Of a stretch of DNA of 64,000 nucleotides, positions 21,561 to 32,252 are shown one piece after another (the stretch's first letter is position 1; each line of letters begins with the position of its first letter). The DNA comes from Bacteroidota bacterium (GTDB taxonomy: Bacteria; Bacteroidota; Bacteroidia; Chitinophagales; JADIYW01). The notes beneath the pieces were generated by a model that was not told where the DNA came from, did no database searches, and saw only the letters and a program-made list of their open reading frames with translations. The DNA lies in contig JAQBNI010000150.1 of the NCBI GenBank assembly GCA_028288625.1, positions 1,584 to 65,583 on the forward strand, read 5' to 3'. Position numbers and translations under genes: made by a program.

Positions 21561-23081
21561 TTAGAAGATATCAAAGCTTTCATTTCCTTTTCCTTCTTCA
21601 TCTTTCATGAAATTACCTTTAGACGGCAACGTTTTATAATTTGAAAATTCCTGCATCTCTTCATACAATCCGCCGGCATCATAAAACCGTCCGAAGTTTT
21701 TATTAAACCGCAGGTTAACATTTCCTGTAGGTCCGTTTCTATGTTTTGCAATGATGAGTTCTGCTACACCTTTTAGTGAAGCGCCGTCAGCGCCTTCATT
21801 CAGATTATAGTATTCAGGGCGATATAAGAACATCACCATATCTGCATCCTGTTCTATCGATCCTGATTCACGCAAATCCGAAAGCTGCGGTTTTTTTTCT
21901 CCGCCGCGTGTTTCAACACTCCGGTTTAATTGCGATAAAGCGATCACCGGAATATTTAATTCTTTTGCCAAACCTTTTAATGATCTTGAAATAGATGAAA
22001 TTTCCTGTTCGCGGTTCATGCCTTTATCTCCTGCTCCGCTCATCAATTGCAAATAATCGATGATCACCATTTTTATTCCATGCGCATTCTGCAAGCGCCG
22101 GCATTGTGCGCGCAACTCATAAATATTTATGGCAGGCTGATCATTGATATATATAGGCGCCTGTGATAATTTTTCCACTTTGTCTCTCAATATCGCATAT
22201 TCATTATCGCTCATTTTTCCGTTCGCTACTTTTTGCGCATCGATCTCGCATTCCAATGAGATCAAGCGTTTTGCTAGTTGCACGGCACCCATTTCCAAAG
22301 AAAAAATTGCAACCGGCATATTAAAATCCACTGCTGCATTGCGCGCTAAATTTAAAACGAATGCGGTCTTTCCCATGGACGGTCGCGCTGCAACGATAAT
22401 AAGATCTGTAGCCTTCCAGCCTGCTGTGAGTTTATCCAATTCAAGATAACCGGATGGAACAGAATCTTCGAGTAAGCCATCTTCGCGGTTGATCAATCCA
22501 TCTATTTGCATAATGGATTTCGAGACAAGCTGACCGATACCCTGCGTAGAGTTGCGTAAGTTTTTATCGGTGATCTCATAAATGCGTTTTTCTGCAGTAT
22601 CTAAAAGATCGAAAACATCTGTTGTGTCTTCGTAAGAATCGCGGATAATATCATTTGAAATACGGATCAGTTCGCGCTGAATAAATTTTTGGATGATGAT
22701 ACGCGCGTGAAATTCAACGTTTGCAGAAGATGCAATTTTATTGGTTAATTCGCTTAAGTAATATGCGCCGCCAATCTCTTCGAGTTTTGCCTGTTTACGT
22801 AATTCTTCAGTTACTGTTAACAGGTCTATCGGCTGTGATTTTCCGAACAATTCCTGGATGGCGCGAAAGATTGTAGAATGCGCATCAACATAAAAACTTT
22901 CAGGTTTTAAAATATCAGAAACATAGCTGATAGCATCTTTTTCTATTAAAATTGCACCTAAAACCGCTTCCTCTAATTCACGTGCCTGCGGGGGTATTTT
23001 TCCGTATAATAAATTAGAAATATCTTCAGTCTTATTACGTGTAAACCGCGTAGTACGTTTGTTCGTCGTATTATCTTCCAT
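21561..23081 (-). CDS. dnaB: replicative DNA helicase
   Basis: PPQARELEEAVLG, AARPSMGKT, FSLEM, IIDYLQL, LSQLNR, DLRESGSIEQDAD, KHRNG; start 23081 or 23099; no intein. Confidence 0.97.
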   Translation of the reverse strand: MEDNTTNKRTTRFTRNKTEDISNLLYGKIPPQARELEEAVLGAILIEKDAISYVSDILKPESFYVDAHSTIFRAIQELFGKSQPIDLLTVTEELRKQAKLEEIGGAYYLSELTNKIASSANVEFHARIIIQKFIQRELIRISNDIIRDSYEDTTDVFDLLDTAEKRIYEITDKNLRNSTQGIGQLVSKSIMQIDGLINREDGLLEDSVPSGYLELDKLTAGWKATDLIIVAARPSMGKTAFVLNLARNAAVDFNMPVAIFSLEMGAVQLAKRLISLECEIDAQKVANGKMSDNEYAILRDKVEKLSQAPIYINDQPAINIYELRAQCRRLQNAHGIKMVIIDYLQLMSGAGDKGMNREQEISSISRSLKGLAKELNIPVIALSQLNRSVETRGGEKKPQLSDLRESGSIEQDADMVMFLYRPEYYNLNEGADGASLKGVAELIIAKHRNGPTGNVNLRFNKNFGRFYDAGGLYEEMQEFSNYKTLPSKGNFMKDEEGKGNESFDIF

Positions 23082-23261
23082 AGCTCTACGAAAATACAAT
23101 TATAACTTTGTTCCGAAATTGCTATTAGTCAACTTTAATCTGTTAATAAACTCAAAGCCGTGGAACGTATGGTTTAGTATTTGAGATAGAATTCTTTACT
23201 TAATCACCAAATACGAGTATGTTGAATAATGACTTTTTTGAGTGTACAACTCGATTTTTTT

Positions 23262-23293
23262 TGTTGAAAAGACTGTGGATGAAGTGTGTATAA
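23262..23293. promoter_or_regulatory. three tandem DnaA-box-like 9-mers upstream of dnaB
   Basis: TGTTGAAAA (23262), TGTGGATGA (23274), TGTGTATAA (23285; reverse complement TTATACACA, perfect TTATNCACA); further TGTTAATAA at 23141. Confidence 0.55.
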
Positions 23294-23341
23294 AAGGGGG
23301 AAATAAATTATAAAAATTTACATGCTTAGCAAAGATCAAGA

Positions 23342-24529
23342 TTATCCGAAAGCATTTTCCCCGGTAAGATCCATTCCCGTGATCAGTAAATGGACTTCAT
23401 GCGTTCCTTCATAAGTAATCACGCTTTCCAGGTTCATGGCATGGCGCATAAACGGAAAATCTCCCGTGATTCCCATAGCGCCGCAGATCTGCCTGCAATC
23501 GCGCGCAATGCGTAAAGCAGTTTCTACATTATTGCGTTTCCCCATGGATATTTGTGCCGGCGTTATTTTTCCTTCGTTATTTAATTTTCCTAATTGCATT
23601 GCCAGTAATTGGGCTTTCGTCAATTCCGTAAGCATCTCCGCTAACTTTTTTTGTGTCAACTGGAAACCGGCTAACGGCTTTCCGAATTGTTTACGTTCCT
23701 TGCTGTATTCAACGGCATGATGAAGACAATCCATCGCTGCGCCCATGCTGCCCCAGGCAATGCCGTATCGCGCAGATGATAAGCAGGAAAGCGGCGCTTT
23801 CAAGCCTTTTGCGAGCGGTAGAATGTTTTCTGCAGGAATTTCAACGTCTTCAAAAATAAGCTCGCCGGTAATGGATGCGCGTAAGCTCCATTTGCCTTTT
23901 ATTTCAGGGGCTGAGAAGCCTTTCATGCCACGCTCTACAATACACCCGATAATATGTCCGTCTTCATTTTTTGCCCAAACAACGGCAATATCCGACAACG
24001 GAGAATTAGTGATCCACATTTTTGCTCCGTTGAGTATATATTTATCTCCGGATTTTTTGATGCGCGTTTCCATTCCCGACGGATCGCTGCCGTGATTCGG
24101 TTCCGTTAATCCGAAACATCCGATAAATTCACCCTTTGCTAATTTCGGTAAGAATTTATTTTTTTGTTCTTCACTTCCGAACTTCCAGATCGGGTACATC
24201 ACCAATGAGCTTTGCACGCTTGCGCAGCTTCTTACACCGGAATCTCCGCGTTCGAGTTCCTGCATGATCAAGCCATAAGAAATCAGATCAAGTCCACCGC
24301 CGCCATATTTTGTTGGTATATACGGACCTAAAGCACCGATCTCTCCCAATTCTTTTACAAGATGTTTTGGAAATTTATTATGCTCTGCACAATCTTCTAT
24401 AATTGGAATCACCGCAGTGTTTACCCAGCTTCTTATACTTTCCCGGATCAGCTTTTGCTCTTCAGTCAATTGTTCATCCAAATTCAAATAATCAAATCCA
24501 CGGTATGATGCAGCATATCTGTTTTGCAT
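23342..24529 (-). CDS. acyl-CoA dehydrogenase (glutaryl-CoA dehydrogenase-like)
   Basis: FGLTEPNHGSDP, GAKMWITN, RKQFGKPL, TYEGTHEVH motifs typical of the GCDH subfamily. Confidence 0.88.
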   Translation of the reverse strand: MQNRYAASYRGFDYLNLDEQLTEEQKLIRESIRSWVNTAVIPIIEDCAEHNKFPKHLVKELGEIGALGPYIPTKYGGGGLDLISYGLIMQELERGDSGVRSCASVQSSLVMYPIWKFGSEEQKNKFLPKLAKGEFIGCFGLTEPNHGSDPSGMETRIKKSGDKYILNGAKMWITNSPLSDIAVVWAKNEDGHIIGCIVERGMKGFSAPEIKGKWSLRASITGELIFEDVEIPAENILPLAKGLKAPLSCLSSARYGIAWGSMGAAMDCLHHAVEYSKERKQFGKPLAGFQLTQKKLAEMLTELTKAQLLAMQLGKLNNEGKITPAQISMGKRNNVETALRIARDCRQICGAMGITGDFPFMRHAMNLESVITYEGTHEVHLLITGMDLTGENAFG

Positions 24530-24630
24530 AATTCTTTTACTTTACGACATAAATCTATTTAATTTTTATGAGACTATGGCTTTGATAATTTTTAATTAGT
24601 TTCGCTACGGTTTTTATAGATAATAAAGTG

Positions 24631-24990
24631 ATGCAAAAAAAACTCCGGATAGGTTTGGAAGGTATGGAATTCCATGCGCATCACGGTGTGTATGAAGAAG
24701 AGCGTATAAAGGGCGGGAAATATATTGTAGATGTTTTTGTTTATACGGATGCAATGCAGGCAGAATTATATGATGATCTGAACGGTACAGTTAATTATGA
24801 AAAAATTTATAGCACAGTGGAACAAAGTATGCAGCAGCCTGTAAAACTGATCGAACATTTAGCAAGAAAGATCCTGGATGATTTACGCATTTTTATTTCA
24901 AAGGATGATCAAATTCGGATCAAAGTAAAAAAGCTGTTCCCTCCTCTAAGTGGCAAGGTAGCTGCAGGAGTAGTGGAAATTGAAGATTAA
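24631..24990 (+). CDS. folB: dihydroneopterin aldolase
   Basis: FHAHHGVYEEE, DDL..TVNYE, LIEHLA, K..PP motifs. Confidence 0.93.
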   Translation: MQKKLRIGLEGMEFHAHHGVYEEERIKGGKYIVDVFVYTDAMQAELYDDLNGTVNYEKIYSTVEQSMQQPVKLIEHLARKILDDLRIFISKDDQIRIKVKKLFPPLSGKVAAGVVEIED

Positions 24991-25081: not shown

Positions 25082-25155
25082 GGTCGGTTGGCCGAGAGGC
25101 TAGGCAGAGCTCTGCAAAAGCTCGTACGGCGGTTCGAATCCGCCATCGACCTCCA
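25082..25155 (+). tRNA. tRNA-Cys (GCA)
   Basis: Acceptor GGTCGGT/ATCGACC, anticodon arm GAGCT-ctGCAaa-AGCTC, T arm GGCGG-TTCGAAT-CCGCC, U73 discriminator, encoded CCA. Confidence 0.97.
25139..25153 (+). repeat. att core (tRNA-proximal)
   Basis: TCCGCCATCGACCTC, the 3' end of tRNA-Cys. Confidence 0.92.
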
Positions 25156-25277: not shown

Positions 25278-25469
25278 TCATTCCATTTTGAGTTGTTTCA
25301 TAATGTGTGAAACGAGATATCGCTTGCGATTGCTTAAGCGAAATGATGGCTTAATCGTACCGAAAGCTTCAAGACGTAAAAGTGTGTTTTCACTAATCTG
25401 AAGCATCTGCATGACTTGTTTAGCCGTGAGGATTTTATCCTCTTCCTTTTTCTGTTCCATGAATTCCAT
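25278..25469 (-). CDS. excisionase-like MerR/HTH_17 DNA-binding protein
   Basis: 63 aa, LTAKQVMQMLQISENTLLRLE..G.I.P......RY pattern of recombination directionality factors; at the element end. Confidence 0.75.
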   Translation of the reverse strand: MEFMEQKKEEDKILTAKQVMQMLQISENTLLRLEAFGTIKPSFRLSNRKRYLVSHIMKQLKME

Positions 25470-25725
25470 GTATTGTTATCTCACATTGACTGTGATTATA
25501 CCTAAACTACGATTTATTCCAATACAGTGCAACCTTAATTAAAGGTGCAATACATTTTTATTATTATTCCAACAGCATAGACTTTACTTGTTCCCGAAAA
25601 TTCATTTTATTAAGCCAATAGATAGACCCATTATGTCTTTTTCATTTTGGTGCAATATTTATAAAGTAAGAAACATAACACGGAACCGCCCCCACGTGGT
25701 TCTCCTATTTATAAACCAGAAGTAA

Positions 25726-26316
25726 ATGAGAAATGCTGAATTATTAGACAAATTAAATAGCGGAAAGATGAAGAAATTCTTTAAGCTAAATCAATTGAAA
25801 GAGATAACAGGTTTACAAGACAGAGCCTTAAAATACCGTATGCTGTATGTTAAGAATAAATATATTGACATACCCAGCAGATTGAAAAAATTGGGACGAA
25901 GTTGGCAAATACATTATTCAATAGTGTACGAGTTCTTTCCTAAGAGAAAAAGAATTGAAACAACCGTATATACATACCCGTGGGCGAACATTGTAAGTTG
26001 GAATCCAGAAAACAACTACGACGCTGCGTACCACGAAGAATTGATACAACAGATAAAGAAGCAACTGCCGAATAATAAAATCCTTTATGCAATTGAACTG
26101 GACAGCCGACAAGTTAAGCATGTACACTTTATAACGGATGCGCAGAAGGTTGACTTAGATAAAGCTGTGAATGATACGTTAGATTTATTCATGTCACATA
26201 AAATCGCAAATAAGGTGAGAAAAGAATACAAGCTCGAAATAAATAAGATTTACCACAAGTATAATGTGGTGGATTATCTCCGCAAAGCTCCAGTAGCAAG
26301 CGGAATCATAAATTAA
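25726..26316 (+). CDS. wHTH-HUH endonuclease fusion, putative rolling-circle replication initiator
   Basis: N-terminal HTH-like (KLNQLKEITGLQDRALKYRM...GRSWQI); C-terminal YAIE...KHVHFI (HUH motif II) and VDYLRK (YxxK motif III). Confidence 0.65.
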   Translation: MRNAELLDKLNSGKMKKFFKLNQLKEITGLQDRALKYRMLYVKNKYIDIPSRLKKLGRSWQIHYSIVYEFFPKRKRIETTVYTYPWANIVSWNPENNYDAAYHEELIQQIKKQLPNNKILYAIELDSRQVKHVHFITDAQKVDLDKAVNDTLDLFMSHKIANKVRKEYKLEINKIYHKYNVVDYLRKAPVASGIIN

Positions 26317-26323
26317 GACAGAT

Positions 26324-26542
26324 ATGAAAAAAGAAATTATTAACCTTGACAACATGCCAATGACGAAAGCGTTGCTGATTGATTACATCATGTTCATGTA
26401 CGGTGAAGCGTATGATATAAGCCATGAGTATTTGGTCATGGAATACCTAATGCTTAAGCGAGAAAATCGTTTGCATGAATTGTTCCAACAGGAATTACTT
26501 GACAACACAGGTGCCCTGGAAGAGGACTTTATTTGGCGGTAA
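26324..26542 (+). CDS. hypothetical protein of the element
   Basis: 72-aa ORF 7 nt after the Rep-like gene, same strand. Confidence 0.65.
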   Translation: MKKEIINLDNMPMTKALLIDYIMFMYGEAYDISHEYLVMEYLMLKRENRLHELFQQELLDNTGALEEDFIWR

Positions 26543-26744
26543 CATCGTTACGCAACATACATACGAAAACTTGCCTTAGTTTAATGAAACCTTCCATATG
26601 GCGTTTAAATTTTCTGGGAAAATTACAAGTACCGAAAAGGACGTTATAGCTTCCGTTAATGTTCACAAAAGGTTGGTTGGAATTGCCGAATTCATACAAG
26701 AATCATAAAATAATATCATATGCTGATTAAAAATTTCCCATAAA

Positions 26745-26906
26745 ATGACCATAGAAGAAATAGGTGCAAAGATACAATTGAAGCAAGCCCAAATACAGGC
26801 TGAGTCTGACCAACATAGAAAGCAAGTATTATCAAAAGAGTTACATGTATTACAACTGCGTAAGGAGATAGAAACTATAAAGCAGCAGATTAGTAGATTA
26901 CCATGA
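26745..26906 (+). CDS. small coiled-coil protein (53 aa, below the ORF-track cutoff)
   Basis: Translated by hand: MTIEEIGAKIQLKQAQIQAESDQHRKQVLSKELHVLQLRKEIETIKQQISRLP; A-rich context before the ATG; heptad pattern. Confidence 0.55.
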   Translation: MTIEEIGAKIQLKQAQIQAESDQHRKQVLSKELHVLQLRKEIETIKQQISRLP

Positions 26907-27356
26907 TGTTTTACCTACTCCTTTACACGTTGGACACCTTTCTACTTCATCCTTATTTTTTTCATTTTTGGATAGAAGTCGTCCTGTACCTTGGCATACT
27001 GTACAATCAAATCGTGAATCTACTGGTTGTGAGTCTTCTGGTTGTAAATCTAATGGTGAATCTACATTAATTAGATTGTTAGCAATATTTGACAAACTCT
27101 GAAATATTACTATAAAAAAAATTATTTCGGTAATCGCCATAACAATATTTATTACAGAATAATAATCTTTAAGCTTATCGGGTTTAATGTTTAAAATCTC
27201 ATCAACGGTCATCAGGGTGGGATAAGTATCGCTTAAAAACAACTGGGGATTTTCACGCAATAAAGCAAAGATTATGGCAAAGATAATTTGTATAATTAGG
27301 ACGTTACGAAGAGTCATAACTGAATTACCAGCTACTTTAATTCTATTACTATTCAT
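26898..27356 (-). CDS. membrane protein with C-terminal DnaJ-type CxxCxGxG zinc finger
   Basis: Two hydrophobic helices; CTVCQGTG and CPTCKGVG. Confidence 0.75.
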   Translation of the reverse strand: MNSNRIKVAGNSVMTLRNVLIIQIIFAIIFALLRENPQLFLSDTYPTLMTVDEILNIKPDKLKDYYSVINIVMAITEIIFFIVIFQSLSNIANNLINVDSPLDLQPEDSQPVDSRFDCTVCQGTGRLLSKNEKNKDEVERCPTCKGVGKTSW

Positions 27357-27359
27357 AAC

Positions 27360-28037
27360 TTAATAAGTTTGTTTTCCAGTACCCTTGCATGATGGACAAA
27401 CTTTATATCCATCATAACTGTTTACAAAACCTGTTCCATTACACATCTCACATTTCGGATAATTTGCTTGATGTCTTTCAACAGTAGTCGGTGATGCGAC
27501 ACCGCAATAATTACAGAATCCATTTACATAATGTCCAAAACCACACGAGACACATTTTTCTCCCGAATATTGGTCTACCTTATCAAGTAATTTATTCACT
27601 TCTGCCGTATGCTTCCTGCCACATTCTGGACTACAAACATAACATTGATAGGGATAGCTACAAGGTTTCCATATGCCTTCAGATGCTTCTTCATAACCAT
27701 TACCTTTAAATTTACGACCACAAATACTACATGTATTTTCTTTTACCTCTTCTGTAACAGTTTTGGAGCTTTCAGTTTGACTATTATTCATTTGGTTATA
27801 ATCAGAAGTCTTTTCGCTATTCGGTACAGCGACAGGGATTATAGCTATAATAATAAGTGAAATAAGAAATACAATTACGCTTCCTACTCCTATGCGCAGA
27901 TAAGACTTTTGGCTTATGGAGAGAACAGACGTGTGAACATTATTTCCTTTCTTAAAAGAGCTATGGGCGTTATAACCAGTCATTCCAAATAAGCTAAATG
28001 CCATGGATATAAAAACGATGCAAATGAAAATAACCAT
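27360..28037 (-). CDS. membrane-anchored multi-zinc-finger protein
   Basis: Two N-terminal hydrophobic helices, then CSIC...CSPEC, CVSC...CNYC, CEMCNGTG...CPSCKGTG. Confidence 0.75.
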   Translation of the reverse strand: MVIFICIVFISMAFSLFGMTGYNAHSSFKKGNNVHTSVLSISQKSYLRIGVGSVIVFLISLIIIAIIPVAVPNSEKTSDYNQMNNSQTESSKTVTEEVKENTCSICGRKFKGNGYEEASEGIWKPCSYPYQCYVCSPECGRKHTAEVNKLLDKVDQYSGEKCVSCGFGHYVNGFCNYCGVASPTTVERHQANYPKCEMCNGTGFVNSYDGYKVCPSCKGTGKQTY

Positions 28038-28153: not shown

Positions 28154-28405
28154 ATGCAAAGCCAGTTGGACAAGGTTAAGGATGAAGTCACAGAGCGAAT
28201 TCACAAACTCTTTATGACTAAGTTTGGCGGTAATAAATTACAATTTGCCAAAGCCTCTGGGTGCAATGAAAAAACAATCCGATTGTTATTTGATGAGGGG
28301 CAGGGTATGACGTTGAATTTGTTATTCAAGTTGGCTTTTGCGTTGGATGTAACACCGTCAGAATTATTGGACGGGTTATCACTTAAAACCTCTTCCAAAA
28401 AGTAG
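28154..28405 (+). CDS. XRE-family HTH regulator
   Basis: 83 aa, QFAKASGCNEKTIR...MTLNLLFKLAFALDVTPSELL, HTH_3 pattern. Confidence 0.85.
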   Translation: MQSQLDKVKDEVTERIHKLFMTKFGGNKLQFAKASGCNEKTIRLLFDEGQGMTLNLLFKLAFALDVTPSELLDGLSLKTSSKK

Positions 28406-28409
28406 TTTT

Positions 28410-29831
28410 CTATATTGCAACCATATATACAGGCGGTTGAACCACCTTGTAAACATCCGATTGAACACCAGCAACTGCATTCCTAAACATCTCCGCATTG
28501 TCAATAATTGTAGAGTTGTTATAAACATCCTTCATTTCCTTCTTTCGCACCGATGGGTGCGTTATGTTATCAATTACTTGGTTGGATATTCCATGTTGAA
28601 TAAGATTTGTATAAAACGATTTACGTCCCGTATGAGAATGGACTAACTCGTGAAATGGCTGATAGGTTACAGTAGGGGTATCGTTACCATAATACCATGT
28701 CTCTAATTTAACTACCTCTTCAAACTCCAAGTGTTTACACAGCTTCTTTAATTGGCGGTTCAGCGGTTGACCTTTAGGAAAGGTTGGGAATCTCCAACCG
28801 TTTTCCGAAAGAATGCGGTTTACGGGTTCTAATATTGGAATGCAGACCTTCACTTCTCTATTAACCTTTGATACTTTCCTGACCTTTGAAATGATACCTG
28901 TAAACGACACAGACCTACCATTAAATTGCTCGGTTTGCAATGAGTGTAATTCATACAGGTCGCCATATCGTAATCCAGTAAGAGCAGAAAGGATTATAAA
29001 GTTTCTTGCATTATTGAATTCGGAAGAATGAGCCACATCCGCATTCAGGATTTTGGTTAACCGTTCCTCGGTGTAGAAAATTTCATTAGCACTTTTCATT
29101 TCCTCGATATTCAATCCATCCTTATGAATATTAAGTGATACATTAATGTTGGCTTCCGATGCCAGACGCAAGAACATAAGGAATATGTTCGACAGCTTCG
29201 CCATGTAATTTACAGTATAACCGTTTAAGTCTTCCTTCTTTTTGTCATTATTCACCACAGTAAAGAATGACCAATACTTCTTTTCATCAAGGTTCTTAAA
29301 TGTAAGAGCAAGCTTTGCAATAGACTCATATTTTTTTAATAAGTTGAGGAAGACACTGTAGTTTTTAATTGTACCATCCGTAACATGTTTACGGGCTGTA
29401 ATTGGCAATTTCTGAAATTCTTTTATTTTGCCGTCAATGAAATTGACAATAGTTATGTCCTTTACCATCTTTTCCTTGCGCCCCAGTTTTACCTCAATGA
29501 TGTCTTTGAGTTGTTGCGGAGAAGGATTTTGTTCATGTTCTTCCCGATATGCCGTTAACGCTTGGTAAGAAATCTTCTGAATCCTGTCCAATTGATTATT
29601 CAAATCGGCTCCGAACTGACTGACATACTTCTTAACTGTTCGGTATGTGATAACATCCCAGTATTGTGGTTGAATGCGCTGTTGTGTACTGATTCGCATT
29701 GGAATGTATTGCATTCTATCGCTTGTAGCATTGTATTCACTATAACCATAGTTAAAGTTGAAGTAGATAAGCTTATCGCCGTTCTTTGATTTGTTAGATT
29801 CAAGGTTGAAGTTGTGTGTAGCTGTTTTCAT
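28410..29831 (-). CDS. tyrosine recombinase / phage-type integrase
   Basis: Bacteroidota arm-binding N-terminus (IYFNF...ST...I.P.YWD), SAM-like core, catalytic TGLRYGD, HTGRK, ITH and Y (DVY). Confidence 0.92.
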   Translation of the reverse strand: MKTATHNFNLESNKSKNGDKLIYFNFNYGYSEYNATSDRMQYIPMRISTQQRIQPQYWDVITYRTVKKYVSQFGADLNNQLDRIQKISYQALTAYREEHEQNPSPQQLKDIIEVKLGRKEKMVKDITIVNFIDGKIKEFQKLPITARKHVTDGTIKNYSVFLNLLKKYESIAKLALTFKNLDEKKYWSFFTVVNNDKKKEDLNGYTVNYMAKLSNIFLMFLRLASEANINVSLNIHKDGLNIEEMKSANEIFYTEERLTKILNADVAHSSEFNNARNFIILSALTGLRYGDLYELHSLQTEQFNGRSVSFTGIISKVRKVSKVNREVKVCIPILEPVNRILSENGWRFPTFPKGQPLNRQLKKLCKHLEFEEVVKLETWYYGNDTPTVTYQPFHELVHSHTGRKSFYTNLIQHGISNQVIDNITHPSVRKKEMKDVYNNSTIIDNAEMFRNAVAGVQSDVYKVVQPPVYMVAI

Positions 29832-29978
29832 ACGTATTAATTAACGTATTAAAACTACTAAATGATATGCAATAATGCAAGGTAAGTTGAGGATATATTT
29901 TCTGGGTCTCCCAGGTTTTATTGGGGTTTTGAGGCATGTTGCAGTTAGTTGAAGTGAATGGTGGTAATAGGGTTATAG

Positions 29979-29993
29979 TCCGCCATCGACCTC
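29979..29993 (+). repeat. att core (integrase-proximal), duplicated 3' end of tRNA-Cys
   Basis: TCCGCCATCGACCTC identical to 25139-25153. Confidence 0.92.
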
Positions 29994-30001
29994 TTCAAAA
30001 T

Positions 30002-30038: not shown

Positions 30039-32252
30039 TTAATGCTGAATAATAATCTTCTGAATTCCTTCTTTCACACCATCAGAAATTTTCAATAAAT
30101 ATATCCCATTAGAGATACTATTTGTATTGAGATCAATCGCTTGCACATTTTCAATTTTTTTATTGACGATTTGTTGACCTAATGAATTGAATAATTGCAG
30201 TTGAATATTTTTCGAGTTTTCATTTAAGTTAATTTGGAGATGATGGTCTGCCGGATTCGGATAAATTGTAAAGTTTAATTTTTCCGTGATACTGTTTTTA
30301 ATTGCAGTCGGGCGGAACGGAGGAGGATCCTGGCTGAAAATAATTAATCCGCCGTCTATATTTCCTGTAAGCAATTCCAGTTTTCCATCATTAGTTATAT
30401 CATCTATAACTGCTGTAGTTCTTGTGCCGAGATCCTCAGATACTGCAGGAGATGTTAATGAAAAAGAATCGTTCAAATGAGATTCAATATTATTATAAAA
30501 TTGCAAGCCCTCAAAATTTGTTCCCAGGATGAGATCATATTTTCCATCGTTATTTACATCTGCAATACAAGGTTGAGTAAATCCAAAATTACTGTTGACA
30601 CTTTTTATCCTGACTTTTCCCAGCGAATCCGTAACGAAAGAAAATTTTGCGCTATCCGCGGAAGTTCCGCGGTAATAGTCTAGGTTTCCGTTCCGTTCAC
30701 CGGTCACGAGATCAGTTTTTCCATCGCGGTTAAGGTCAATTAAATAAGGCGTTGCATTAGCCCCGATAGAAATTTCATTGCCTGCTGAGTCTTTTAAAAT
30801 ACCCCGATAGAATAGCAACGGAGGATTTCCCTGCGACGCAATATTCTCCCACCATAACATTCTTCCATCCGATAAACCAACAACGAGATCACTGTCATGA
30901 TCATTATCTATATCTCCTGCAGCAGGAAAAATATCTCTGACATTCAGATTGCTGATATTGAGAAAGTCATCATCCTGCAAATTGAATTCAGGATAATCTG
31001 ATGTACCGGTATTTTTATAATAACGCAATTTAAAAATATCCGAATTCATAAAATCTTTATATCCACCGCTGCCCAGTAAAATATCTTTTAATCCATCACC
31101 ATCGACATCAAAAAAACATGGATTTGAATTTTCACCCGCATCTATCATATTATCCAGCAGGAAATTTTTTTTCTGCAAACGAAGATCAATAGAATCGCTT
31201 CTTTGATTTTTATAATACCAGATATTATTGATATTTGCTGCATTCGCATCAAAAGTAGAGACAAGCAAATCCGTTTTTCCATCATTGTCAACATCAGTAA
31301 AATAAGGCGCTGCGAATGAACTTGTATTGTAAGGTACATCGTATGACGGGTAATTAACATCCTGTTTCAATACACTTGCATAAGAGGGAACTCCCTTGTT
31401 ATACAACATGGTTATCGAATTTAATGAAACACTTCCTACCAGTACATCTATTGCTCCATTGTTGTCTACATCAATGCCTTCAATAGTGGATCCTGTATGC
31501 AGAACGTTATTATTATTTGCAGGACGGTTAAATTTAAAACTGCAGGTATCTCTCAAAGCATACATGGCAGAAAATGTGTCGCGTACATTTCCCCAGCAGT
31601 TATCGCTTTTCGCAAAGAATAAACTATCACATGCCAGTCCCAATTCCACTCGCTGGTTTTCATAATAAATGATCCGGTTTCCGGAAACATTAAATGAAAT
31701 GATATCCGGGTCTCCATCATTATTTACATCGACGATAGCAGGTTTTATTACATCTGAGCAGTATACATTAATAAAGATCCCGGAGCCGTGGTAAAAAAAA
31801 CCATCCTGCTGCAGCGTGTAATTTAAAGTATCATGATCATAATATCCCGTATATACTTTTAAATTCCCGACACCATTGTAAGTGAAAATATCTTCAATTC
31901 CATCACAATTGTAATCCTTCATGATCATCCATCCGCTTATCGGCGGGAAATGAGTTGCATACGCAGATTCAAATTTGAAAACGGTAGAATTTGTTGCAAG
32001 ACTTAGAAAAACGCAGAATTTATTGTTTGACTTATCATATGCTACAAGATCTTTTTTACCGTCGTGGTTCACATCCGCTTTTCCAAACTGTACGCTGTTC
32101 AATCCACCTGTCCATGGATATTGTAAAACGCTGTTGTTGTCTGTTACTTTTAAATAATCAAATCTTGTGAAAGATTGCGCATACATGGTGAGCGACAGCA
32201 TACACTGCACGATGAACAAAAAGAATTTTATTTTTTTTATTGCGGAATTCAT
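30039..32252 (-). CDS. FG-GAP/VCBS repeat protein with T9SS type-A C-terminal sorting domain
   Basis: Signal peptide; many DxDxDGxxD loops (DVNHDGKKD, DVDGDGLKD, DLNRDGKTD); CTD IYPNP...LFNSLGQ...GIYLLKI...KIII. Confidence 0.9.
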   Translation of the reverse strand: MNSAIKKIKFFLFIVQCMLSLTMYAQSFTRFDYLKVTDNNSVLQYPWTGGLNSVQFGKADVNHDGKKDLVAYDKSNNKFCVFLSLATNSTVFKFESAYATHFPPISGWMIMKDYNCDGIEDIFTYNGVGNLKVYTGYYDHDTLNYTLQQDGFFYHGSGIFINVYCSDVIKPAIVDVNNDGDPDIISFNVSGNRIIYYENQRVELGLACDSLFFAKSDNCWGNVRDTFSAMYALRDTCSFKFNRPANNNNVLHTGSTIEGIDVDNNGAIDVLVGSVSLNSITMLYNKGVPSYASVLKQDVNYPSYDVPYNTSSFAAPYFTDVDNDGKTDLLVSTFDANAANINNIWYYKNQRSDSIDLRLQKKNFLLDNMIDAGENSNPCFFDVDGDGLKDILLGSGGYKDFMNSDIFKLRYYKNTGTSDYPEFNLQDDDFLNISNLNVRDIFPAAGDIDNDHDSDLVVGLSDGRMLWWENIASQGNPPLLFYRGILKDSAGNEISIGANATPYLIDLNRDGKTDLVTGERNGNLDYYRGTSADSAKFSFVTDSLGKVRIKSVNSNFGFTQPCIADVNNDGKYDLILGTNFEGLQFYNNIESHLNDSFSLTSPAVSEDLGTRTTAVIDDITNDGKLELLTGNIDGGLIIFSQDPPPFRPTAIKNSITEKLNFTIYPNPADHHLQINLNENSKNIQLQLFNSLGQQIVNKKIENVQAIDLNTNSISNGIYLLKISDGVKEGIQKIIIQH

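Follow-up and report, generated by a model that had tools for sequence, protein, structure and literature searches.

HUH endonucleases of the Rep type drive the replication of rolling-circle plasmids, single-stranded DNA (ssDNA) viruses and some transposons. The RepB initiator of plasmid pMV158, of about 210 residues, serves an origin in which a nick hairpin and direct-repeat binding sites lie upstream of rep, and its second domain lies at the C-terminus and serves oligomerisation, rather than being an N-terminal winged helix-turn-helix (wHTH) domain. Both the pCRESS integrated plasmids described by Kazlauskas et al. 2019 (PMC6668415) and the streptococcal elements of Coluzzi et al. 2017 (PMC5357655) are small and integrated at specific sites; they encode an integrase beside a Rep-like HUH protein, in many cases together with an excisionase, and lack virion genes. 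The present analysis concerns a 4.84-kb element at a tRNA-Cys gene of a Bacteroidota bacterium (assembly GCA_028288625.1, contig JAQBNI010000150.1), which lies in a stretch of 64,000 nucleotides, hereafter the window, whose numbering is used throughout. Its gene rep encodes a protein of 196 residues that is most likely an HUH-superfamily endonuclease of the Y1 type, with its motifs in Rep order, no helicase and a predicted nicking activity. We consider it probable, with some reserve, that this protein is the helicase-less rolling-circle initiator of the excised element and that it recognises the origin through a fused wHTH domain.

A first-pass annotation, made from the letters of the window alone, had put forward such a protein, and as far as computation reaches its interpretation is supported. 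The 196-residue open reading frame (ORF) that it reported, with the motif strings in their order, agrees with both the ORF listing and the raw sequence. The gene and its two predicted domains are as follows.

25726-26316, plus strand: rep gene, 196 residues, ATG start (ORF listing; codons compared with the raw sequence)
25777-25935, plus strand: predicted N-terminal MerR/Xis-type wHTH domain of the rep protein, approximately residues 18-70
25978-26313, plus strand: predicted C-terminal HUH nuclease domain of the rep protein, approximately residues 85-196, with E124, H132, H134, Y184 and K187

The motif-I string NIVSWNP occupies residues 88-94 and is followed by YAIE (residues 121-124), by KHVHFI (residues 131-136; H132 codon at 26119-26121, H134 codon at 26125-26127) and by VDYLRK (residues 182-187; Y184 codon at 26275-26277). 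The conserved tyrosine thus lies 50 residues C-terminal to the HxH, which is the Rep order I-II-III, and the same order, with HUH before Tyr, is seen in the aligned relatives. The protein stops at residue 196 and contains no P-loop domain, as judged from the ORF and Pfam.

Relatives of the rep protein are few and diverse, reaching down to 20-30% identity. A word-indexed search recovered 14 at E<=1e-3 among 154 candidates of 107-343 residues, while HMMER against 1.84 billion representative sequences gave 58 matches at E<=1e-3, of which 31 reach E<=1e-10 and 5 reach E<=1e-30. All but one of these 58 are 62-229 residues long, the remaining one being a weak match of 699 residues. A family profile search returned no relative of 399-2000 residues, which is weak evidence by the tool's own account and leaves 344-398 residues unsearched; from this result and from the lengths of the library matches, no helicase-fused form of the family was found, in line with the first-pass claim that a helicase domain is absent. 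That annotation had also expected the protein to be known only as hypothetical, and indeed the three relatives with a source name, two of them from Ferruginibacter albus and a Winogradskyella metagenome-assembled genome (MAG), are each called 'hypothetical protein'.

Conservation was counted in an alignment of all 56 stored relatives of 160-235 residues; the other 16 of the 72 stored proteins were omitted, 15 of them as fragments of less than 160 residues and one, P0071, as the weak 699-residue match. The H-x-H and Y-x-x-K sets, on whose conservation the first-pass annotation had staked its proposal, are retained almost throughout: E124 in 55 of the 56 proteins, H132 in 55, H134 in 53, Y184 in 55 and K187 in 55. 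The exceptions are P0034, with Q and I at the two histidine positions, P0040 and P0054, with H-x-N instead of HxH, P0021, with a diverged C-terminus lacking the Tyr and Lys, and P0041, with G at the position of E124. All five catalytic columns are invariant in a second alignment of 44 sequences, A2, which was built without these five exceptions, five near-duplicates and two truncated rows; since the exceptions had been excluded from A2 beforehand, the 56-protein alignment provides the unbiased count. On these alignments the motif set is beyond what chance would give. A profile of the 44 members searched against PDB had the Rep of tomato yellow leaf curl virus (TYLCV) as its sole match (E 0.41), pairing E..HxH with E..HLH and YxxK with YIDK, and a profile of the 14 close relatives had no match in PDB.

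A predicted HUH fold had been made a condition for the proposal beforehand, and the best structural matches are indeed solved Rep nuclease domains, with AlphaFold2, Foldseek, a second aligner and the BFVD collection in agreement. The AlphaFold2 model, computed from a 14-row alignment, has a mean predicted local distance difference test score (pLDDT) of 88.7 and a predicted template modelling score (pTM) of 0.71. Its C-terminal part runs from strand 88-94 (motif I) through helix 100-113, strand 119-125 ending in E124, strand 131-137 (HxH), helix 141-156 and strands 157-174 to helix 178-186, which carries Y184, and strand 191-195. With Foldseek against PDB nothing was found at E<=1e-3; the top rows are the Rep domains of wheat dwarf virus and TYLCV and SIRV1 ORF119, at E 4e-3 to 1e-2, and IS608 TnpA, adeno-associated virus (AAV) Rep and parvovirus NS1 follow lower down. 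The second structural aligner, which is independent of Foldseek, ranked SIRV1 ORF119 Rep (2x3g) as the best of 48,161 chains, with Z 9.6 and a root-mean-square deviation of 2.5 A over 96 residues at 15% identity. The next Rep matches are vientovirus Rep (9pqq) at Z 8.5, faba bean necrotic yellows virus (FBNYV) M-Rep (6h8o) at 7.8 and pMV158 RepB (8amu) at 7.5, and circovirus, parvovirus and AAV Reps score Z 7.0-7.7. Among the predicted viral structures of BFVD there are 6 matches at E<=1e-3, all of them Rep or NS1, and the named rows ranked after these are nearly all CRESS-DNA virus Rep (CRESS: circular, Rep-encoding ssDNA) or parvovirus NS1. The protein had been called unusually small for a Rep, and this was overstated, the SIRV1 ORF119 chain having 116 residues and pMV158 RepB about 210.

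For the N-terminal part, an Xis/MerR-type wHTH had been suggested. The helices and beta hairpin of the model and the uniform kind of its matches speak for this, while the scores are weak, so that the assignment is plausible only. Residues 1-81 modelled alone (pLDDT 84.1) form helices 21-28 and 32-45 (32-46 in the full model) and a beta hairpin at 53-63. The nearest structures are the N-terminal HTH of ParA2 (Z 5.7) and the DNA-binding domain of pSK1 Par (5.1); many MerR-type regulators reach Z 4.0-4.9, including TnrA at 4.6, and the excisionases RdfS, Pukovnik Xis, TorI and Tn916 Xis reach 4.9, 4.4, 3.8 and 3.6. Foldseek places Pukovnik Xis first, at E 0.7, and Pfam HTH_17 and MerR each match only 3 of the 44 members at E<=1. 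Weak scores are usual for a domain of 60 residues. The predicted N-terminal domain is therefore best described as a plausible, not firmly established, MerR/Xis-type wHTH. Two of its residues, R33 (49 of 56) and R38 (48 of 56), are among the best-retained columns, and this conservation matches the presence of an invariant DNA box upstream of rep.

The genomic setting of the family was examined in 37 loci besides the window, which were studied with tblastn and ARAGORN, and with Pfam on representatives. Eleven, located with the 14-member alignment, come from species genomes (Crocinitomicaceae, Flavobacterium, Winogradskyella, other Flavobacteriia and one 'uncultured Bacteroidetes' MAG) and 26 further ones from metagenomes. 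The 320 nt 5' of rep were compared in 34 loci and the window, 35 sequences that each extend for more than 120 nt there; L011, L020 and L027 were too short. A common architecture was observed at all 35: GGTGCAA boxes, then a hairpin and a CTTGWCCT-type 8-mer before the start codon. In the window and its element these features are placed as follows.

25527-25551, plus strand: distal box region, an imperfect palindrome, with GTGCAA at 25527-25532 and GGTGCAAT at 25544-25551
25649-25668, plus strand: candidate operator or promoter element, made up of the proximal box GGTGCAAT and the adjoining 3' ATTTATAAA, about 76 nt 5' of the rep ATG
25682-25706, plus strand: hairpin GGAACC..GGTTCT overlapping the 8-mer GTTCTCCT (25699-25706); candidate nick region
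26763-26769, plus strand: third GGTGCAA box, in the first codons of orf53
28260-28267, plus strand: fourth box, GGTGCAAT, within the gene of an 83-residue HTH protein

GGTGCAA, mostly in the form ATAGGTGCAAT, lies 158-250 nt before the rep start in 34 of the 35 sequences, the exception being L022, for which only 164 nt upstream are present. Its seven bases are invariant, and the flanking columns are 30-60% conserved. Most loci have a GTGCA-type or TTCAC box followed by ATATTTA at about -60 to -85. The window and 10 other loci have an extra GGTGCAA, about 0.9-1.07 kb beyond the start of rep. The four boxes of the element (25544, 25649, 26763 and 28260, all on the plus strand) account for 4 of the 15 copies of the window within 7.6% of its length, the expected count for the whole window being 7.5. 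The 8-mer occurs once per rep neighbourhood; it precedes the ATG by 26-40 nt, has TAT(A/G)T after it and reads CTTG[AT]CCT in 33 of 35 sequences and GTTCTCCT in the other two (the window and L041). The 40 nt before it tend toward a hairpin whose sequence varies between lineages: folding of 35 distinct 48-nt segments gave a mean z of -1.58, with z < -1 in 23. The stems of this proximal hairpin differ in sequence between lineages, and no covariation is claimed, the alignment being too poor for a formal test. A hairpin around the distal box was considered and rejected as not general (in 11 of 34 loci, compared with 15% of random positions, the 5-mer arm has its reverse complement within 30 nt). 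Rfam found only the tRNA in the window, its other rows lying far below thresholds, and a scan for sigma-70 promoters, which does not extend to organisms with other promoter types, gave no excess over shuffles (19 sites, shuffle mean 21).

The repeated GGTGCAA is a putative binding site of the wHTH, as iteron or operator, and the single hairpin with its 8-mer is a candidate nick region; a single-copy feature is the better nick candidate because a directly repeated nick site would delete the intervening DNA. Origin recognition by the HTH, which the first-pass annotation had proposed, is a putative function, and it gains support from the invariant GGTGCAA upstream of rep in 34 of 35 loci. Parts of the region may also be promoter or 5'-leader elements.

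The borders of the element are given by a direct repeat, D7, one copy of which lies in the 3' end of the tRNA-Cys gene.

25082-25155, plus strand: tRNA-Cys (GCA), the integration target (ARAGORN; Rfam tRNA, 54.7 bits)
25131-25153, plus strand: attL copy of the att repeat (D7), in the tRNA-Cys 3' end
25278-25469, minus strand: Xis-like HTH protein of 63 residues, divergent from rep, likely excisionase or regulator (HTH_17, phrog_66)
26324-26542, plus strand: orf72, directly 3' of rep, with homologues in other loci
26745-26906, plus strand: orf53, a small conserved protein, with a homologue in 16 of the 37 loci (tblastn)
26898-28037, minus strand: two cargo genes, of 152 and 225 residues, each with a C-terminal CxxCxGxG zinc-ribbon motif
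28154-28405, plus strand: Cro/C1-type HTH regulator of 83 residues (Pfam HTH_26, 22 bits, equal to the cut-off)
28410-29831, minus strand: tyrosine integrase of 473 residues, adjoining attR (Phage_integrase, Arm-DNA-bind_5, phrog_1)
29971-29993, plus strand: attR copy of the att repeat (D7), 87% identical to 25131-25153, with an exact 15-nt core TCCGCCATCGACCTC

The right flank of attR is retained in 29 of 32 other genomes of the same genus, and one of the compared genomes, G011, has an empty site in which the tRNA-Cys gene is followed about 60 nt on by the right-flank homologue, with no element between them. From the att repeats and this empty site the window carries an insertion of 4,840 bp, and with the repeats, the integrase and the empty site in a relative the element is an integrative element at a tRNA gene. 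The integrase matches Phage_integrase (E 1e-4) and Arm-DNA-bind_5 (E 3.4e-3), both below their cut-offs, and the phrog_1 integrase family at E 1.2e-7. For the Xis-like protein, Pfam HTH_17 gives E 7.6e-5 and 23.3 bits, short of its cut-off of 27 bits, and PHROG excisionase families such as phrog_66 (E 6.1e-5) match too. No Pfam, PHROG or NCBIfam match was found for orf72. The zinc-ribbon motifs of the cargo proteins, CPTCKGVGK and CPSCKGTGK, are DnaJ-like, and N-terminal hydrophobic segments were noted on reading the sequences; the pair has sub-threshold matches to Pfam DnaJ_CXXCXGXG and Anti-TRAP, and the 225-residue protein matches phrog_3931, of unknown function, at E 7.2e-6. PADLOC has no match for the cargo pair, and a search of the 11 loci from species genomes, which left aside the 26 from metagenomes, yielded no homologue, so that the pair looks element-specific.

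Beyond the element, the left flank (21561-24990) encodes what we take, from reading the translations, to be housekeeping proteins of ordinary kinds: a DnaB-like helicase (512 residues, minus strand), an acyl-CoA dehydrogenase-like protein (395 residues, minus strand) and, just before the tRNA-Cys gene, a dihydroneopterin aldolase-like protein (120 residues, plus strand). In the conserved gene right of attR, 30380-31320 holds direct repeats that have diverged, each of 33-45 nt and with a spacing of 159-735 nt (TTTTCCATC...), which suggests a repeat-domain protein on the minus strand.

The rep gene is single-copy in its own genome. It was found in 1 of the 32 other genomes of the genus and in none of 28 further relatives, and a sample of 400 genomes from across the phylum, with only 8 candidates scored per genome, gave none at E<=1e-5. 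The family is rare and sporadic, as would be expected of mobile DNA. A second match in the own genome (G000:C77:37449-37604, L015, E 3.8e-4) was rejected: it falls in a protein of 287 residues, presumably glycosyltransferase-like from a reading of its sequence, and covers only the surroundings of NFHVHVITD, a chance likeness to the HUH strand.

The neighbourhoods of the relatives show one rep module in changing company. A homologue of orf72 directly follows rep in 14 of the 37 loci, and an ORF of 98-102 residues (cluster C4) takes this place in 10. A small serine recombinase (Resolvase N-terminal domain, E 1e-15; cluster C3) adjoins the module in 12 loci and a tyrosine recombinase consisting of the catalytic domain only, of 186-189 residues (cluster C20, Xer-like), in 7, so that a resolvase or Xer-like recombinase stands by the module in 19 of 37 loci, as is usual for replicons. 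A tRNA gene (Ala, Leu, Asn, Met, Gln, Ser or Cys) is present in the fetched stretch of 18 loci, with either a tyrosine integrase or a large serine recombinase of 515-552 residues beside it; this difference at the tRNA gene implies that one rep module has been combined with unrelated integration modules. The large serine recombinase was seen at L001:11416-13074, L009:5463-7010, L010:14605-16218 and L034:5418-6950, and its gene reaches into the tRNA gene with its 3' end. A Type ISP/IIG restriction-modification enzyme is a frequent cargo (11 of 37 loci), from which it appears that the element family ferries defence genes. This enzyme has about 1,020-1,060 residues with Type_ISP_C (E 3.7e-70), N6_Mtase and Eco57I domains, and it occurs in L007, L008, L010 (10929-14027), L021, L022, L027, L031, L034 and L039 and, more weakly at 24% identity, in L028 and L030. 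With Pfam on representatives and tblastn, no coupling protein, type IV secretion system gene or virion gene was found in the annotated elements.

Two further observations concern individual loci. A minus-strand ORF of 73 residues (cluster C19) after orf72, at L001:8740-8961 and in L002, L003, L010, L016, L017, L019, L022 and L031, occupies the place that plus-strand orf53 homologues take in other loci; the two overlap in L003 and L010, and one of these readings is probably spurious. Near the end of a Flavobacterium element, L004:15053-16447 (minus strand) encodes a DUF5131 protein (E 2e-57) that shows a weak signal of intein splicing.

From the ORF, the motif conservation, the predicted fold, the element borders, the empty site and the cis architecture established here, we infer the following course of DNA binding, nicking and replication and the part of host factors in it. 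Excision would release the 4.84-kb element as a small circle. The wHTH would bind the GGTGCAA boxes just upstream of rep and the one about 1 kb downstream, and the HUH domain, with a metal held by E124, H132 and H134, would nick one strand in the hairpin/CTTGWCCT region, 20-45 nt before the start codon of rep itself, Tyr184 becoming joined to the 5' phosphate. The free 3'-OH might then prime a host polymerase, with a host helicase of the UvrD/PcrA type unwinding the duplex, as in pMV158 or pC194-type plasmids. Rolling-circle copying of this kind would keep or amplify the excised element and could also feed single-strand transfer. It is a more tentative suggestion, and one that we would not lean on, that the HTH-HUH proteins are an undescribed family and mark out, among Flavobacteriia and related Bacteroidota, a class of rolling-circle replicons that are very small and integrate at tRNA genes, in which a protein of about 190 residues reads a GGTGCAA iteron, nicks a hairpin/CTTGWCCT origin, replicates the circle, hands ssDNA to transfer or packaging and ferries defence cargo in the form of Type ISP restriction enzymes.

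Several results weigh against a rolling-circle initiator. No Pfam or NCBIfam model reaches its cut-off for the rep protein, and neither PHROGs nor NCBIfam has a match for it. PF23343 (REP_ORF2-G2P) gives 12.2 bits and E 0.24 for the window protein, against a gathering cut-off of 27.8 bits; sub-threshold matches to this family, which agree weakly with a Rep, occur in 22 of the 44 members at E<=1, the best with E 8.7e-5, which by E-value scaling corresponds to about 23-24 bits and is still below the cut-off. In the structural comparison with the second aligner, ribosomal S6, ACT and designed ferredoxin-like chains are interleaved with the Reps at Z 7.8-8.5. The fold by itself is not decisive, as the alpha+beta arrangement is common and unrelated ferredoxin-like folds reach Z ~8; it is the predicted fold together with the conserved E/HxH/YxxK set in Rep order that decides for a HUH Rep. 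As for replication, none of the 18 whole-contig loci has terminal repeats, and a free circular form was not seen. A tblastn search of PLSDB and a phage collection gave no match, and of 59 stretches with the pattern in IMG/VR none was confirmed. The contigs of one public DNA run, possibly that of the source sample, hold only the integrated form, at flat depth and with no joint across or around the element, and contigs can show neither absence nor copy number nor expression; no RNA run with the gene was listed. In 12 of the 35 loci CTTGWCCT is preceded by a weak hairpin or by none. A single-strand origin was not recognised in 25470-25725, 26540-26750 or 29832-29995, which fold like shuffles (z -0.31, +1.02 and -0.89). 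The argument from the resolvases is also soft, because rolling-circle plasmids do not usually need them.

The rep protein could alternatively be a Rep-type relaxase of an integrative mobilizable element (IME) that nicks the upstream region as an origin of transfer (oriT) and guides the strand out by way of a mating pore that a co-resident conjugative element supplies, any replication being secondary; this is a real possibility, and one that we regard as rather unlikely. Streptococcal IMEs have the same compact layout of a protein resembling rolling-circle initiators, an excisionase and a tyrosine integrase, and the authors (PMC5357655) treat the streptococcal Rep-like proteins as relaxases and cite ICEBs1 NicK and Rep_1 plasmids for a blurred boundary between Rep and relaxase. 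The window element is moreover minimal and, with its presence in 1 of 32 other genomes of the genus, sporadic, and the host has three ordinary PF03432 relaxase genes elsewhere, which implies that mobilizable DNA is around. Nevertheless the motifs stand in the Rep order and not in the permuted order of canonical Mob relaxases (the permutation is treated in PMC6668415), the annotated elements have no coupling protein, and the own genome (100% complete, 161 contigs) has no Bacteroidota-type TraG ATPase. The window protein does not belong with the canonical Mob relaxases (MOBF/Q/P/V), as it has no Pfam relaxase match and its Tyr follows the HxH. To our knowledge, no Rep-type relaxase has been described for Bacteroidota, no specific search having been made. 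The boxes and the hairpin are also compatible with an oriT, and the roles of Rep and relaxase can coexist.

Two other explanations dispense with a Rep altogether. The N-terminal likeness to excisionases and MerR regulators (RdfS, TnrA and Pukovnik Xis, at the Z values given above) and the GGTGCAA boxes, which have the position expected of an operator that serves the divergent promoters of xis and rep, would suit a regulator or recombination directionality factor whose HUH-like domain is an inactive oligomerisation or DNA-binding module. This is improbable, since near-invariant metal ligands and a Tyr-x-x-Lys kept down to 20-30% identity are not expected of an inactivated domain, and a separate Xis-like gene is already present at 25278-25469. 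Still less likely is that the protein is an IS200/IS605-type Y1 HUH transposase or a PtuB-type, HNH-like defence nuclease. IS608 and IS200 TnpA do appear among the Foldseek rows (E 0.03-0.07), and the nearest ESM Atlas cluster bears the automatic name 'putative Transposase'; yet the element, which carries an integrase, is bounded by a repeated att sequence at a tRNA gene, the rep gene is single-copy and, in the genus, confined to 1 of the 32 other genomes, and neither the window protein nor any of the 44 relatives matches Pfam Y1_Tnp. The PtuB match in PADLOC is weak (17.7 bits, E 5.5e-4) and was judged spurious: the invariant Tyr and the predicted beta-alpha-beta-beta-alpha-beta fold misfit the beta-beta-alpha finger of HNH nucleases, and no PtuA partner lies nearby.

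If the more tentative suggestion of a class of very small replicons holds, the 4.84-kb copy would rank with the smallest known integrative elements that replicate themselves, and if the protein replicates or mobilises the elements, this would explain how restriction-enzyme cargo moves among Flavobacteriia through islands at tRNA genes. New branches of the HUH Reps inform on the origin of replicons and on host transfer, and the present family, invisible to Pfam and NCBIfam, nevertheless has a clear and testable cis architecture of invariant box, hairpin and 8-mer. With so compact a two-domain protein and so clear an architecture, the mapping of the nick site and of HTH-DNA recognition could be quick. 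Small sequence-specific HUH domains also serve as covalent DNA-protein tags, for which a new specificity would be useful.

Among known systems, ORF119 of SIRV1 (Rudiviridae; 2x3g) is alike in being a minimal HUH nuclease domain of about 115 residues without a helicase, and differs in being an archaeal viral protein with no fused HTH and 15% identity, which, according to PMC6668415, acts on a linear double-stranded DNA genome. CRESS-DNA virus Reps (geminivirus, nanovirus and circovirus; 1l2m, 6we0, 6h8o, 7kii) share a uuTWNP-like motif I, the E...HxH and the YxxK, and their domains reach Z 7.0-7.8 and a Foldseek E of 4e-3; however, their C-terminal superfamily 3 (SF3) helicase is absent here, the sequence match (E 0.41) is not significant and their hosts are eukaryotic. 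Similarly RepB of pMV158 and Rep_2 (3dkx, 8amu; Z 6.9-7.5) resemble the rep protein as helicase-less, single-Tyr HUH initiators of about 200 residues, whereas no Pfam Rep_2 match was found here and RepB plasmids are free replicons of Firmicutes. PF23343 is the only Rep family touched by sequence profiles, at sub-threshold level, and a Bacteroidota cluster with this domain is a distant neighbour in the ESM Atlas (score 0.76). The Reps of the pCRESS and streptococcal elements belong to named families (Rep_2, Viral_Rep, Rep_trans, HUH plus SF3), their hosts are mostly Firmicutes and Proteobacteria, and many of the streptococcal elements carry a TcpA coupling protein, which the window element does not.

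A literature search returned no paper describing the HTH-HUH family by title or abstract; the Rep-Arvir paper (PMC13107129), which treats Rep_trans-like archaeal proteins, was judged not relevant. In PMC6668415 an unnamed 'Bacteroidetes' HUH cluster of likely integrated elements is mentioned, and the present family may already be part of it. The kind of system is thus known, in the form of HUH Reps, helicase-less initiators and integrated plasmids or mobilizable elements with Rep-like genes. What sets the present case apart is a family that reaches the cut-off of no curated model, in which a MerR/Xis-like wHTH is, by prediction, fused to a minimal HUH domain, and its association with tRNA-integrating mini-elements of Flavobacteriia and related Bacteroidota that carry a strongly conserved origin-like region.

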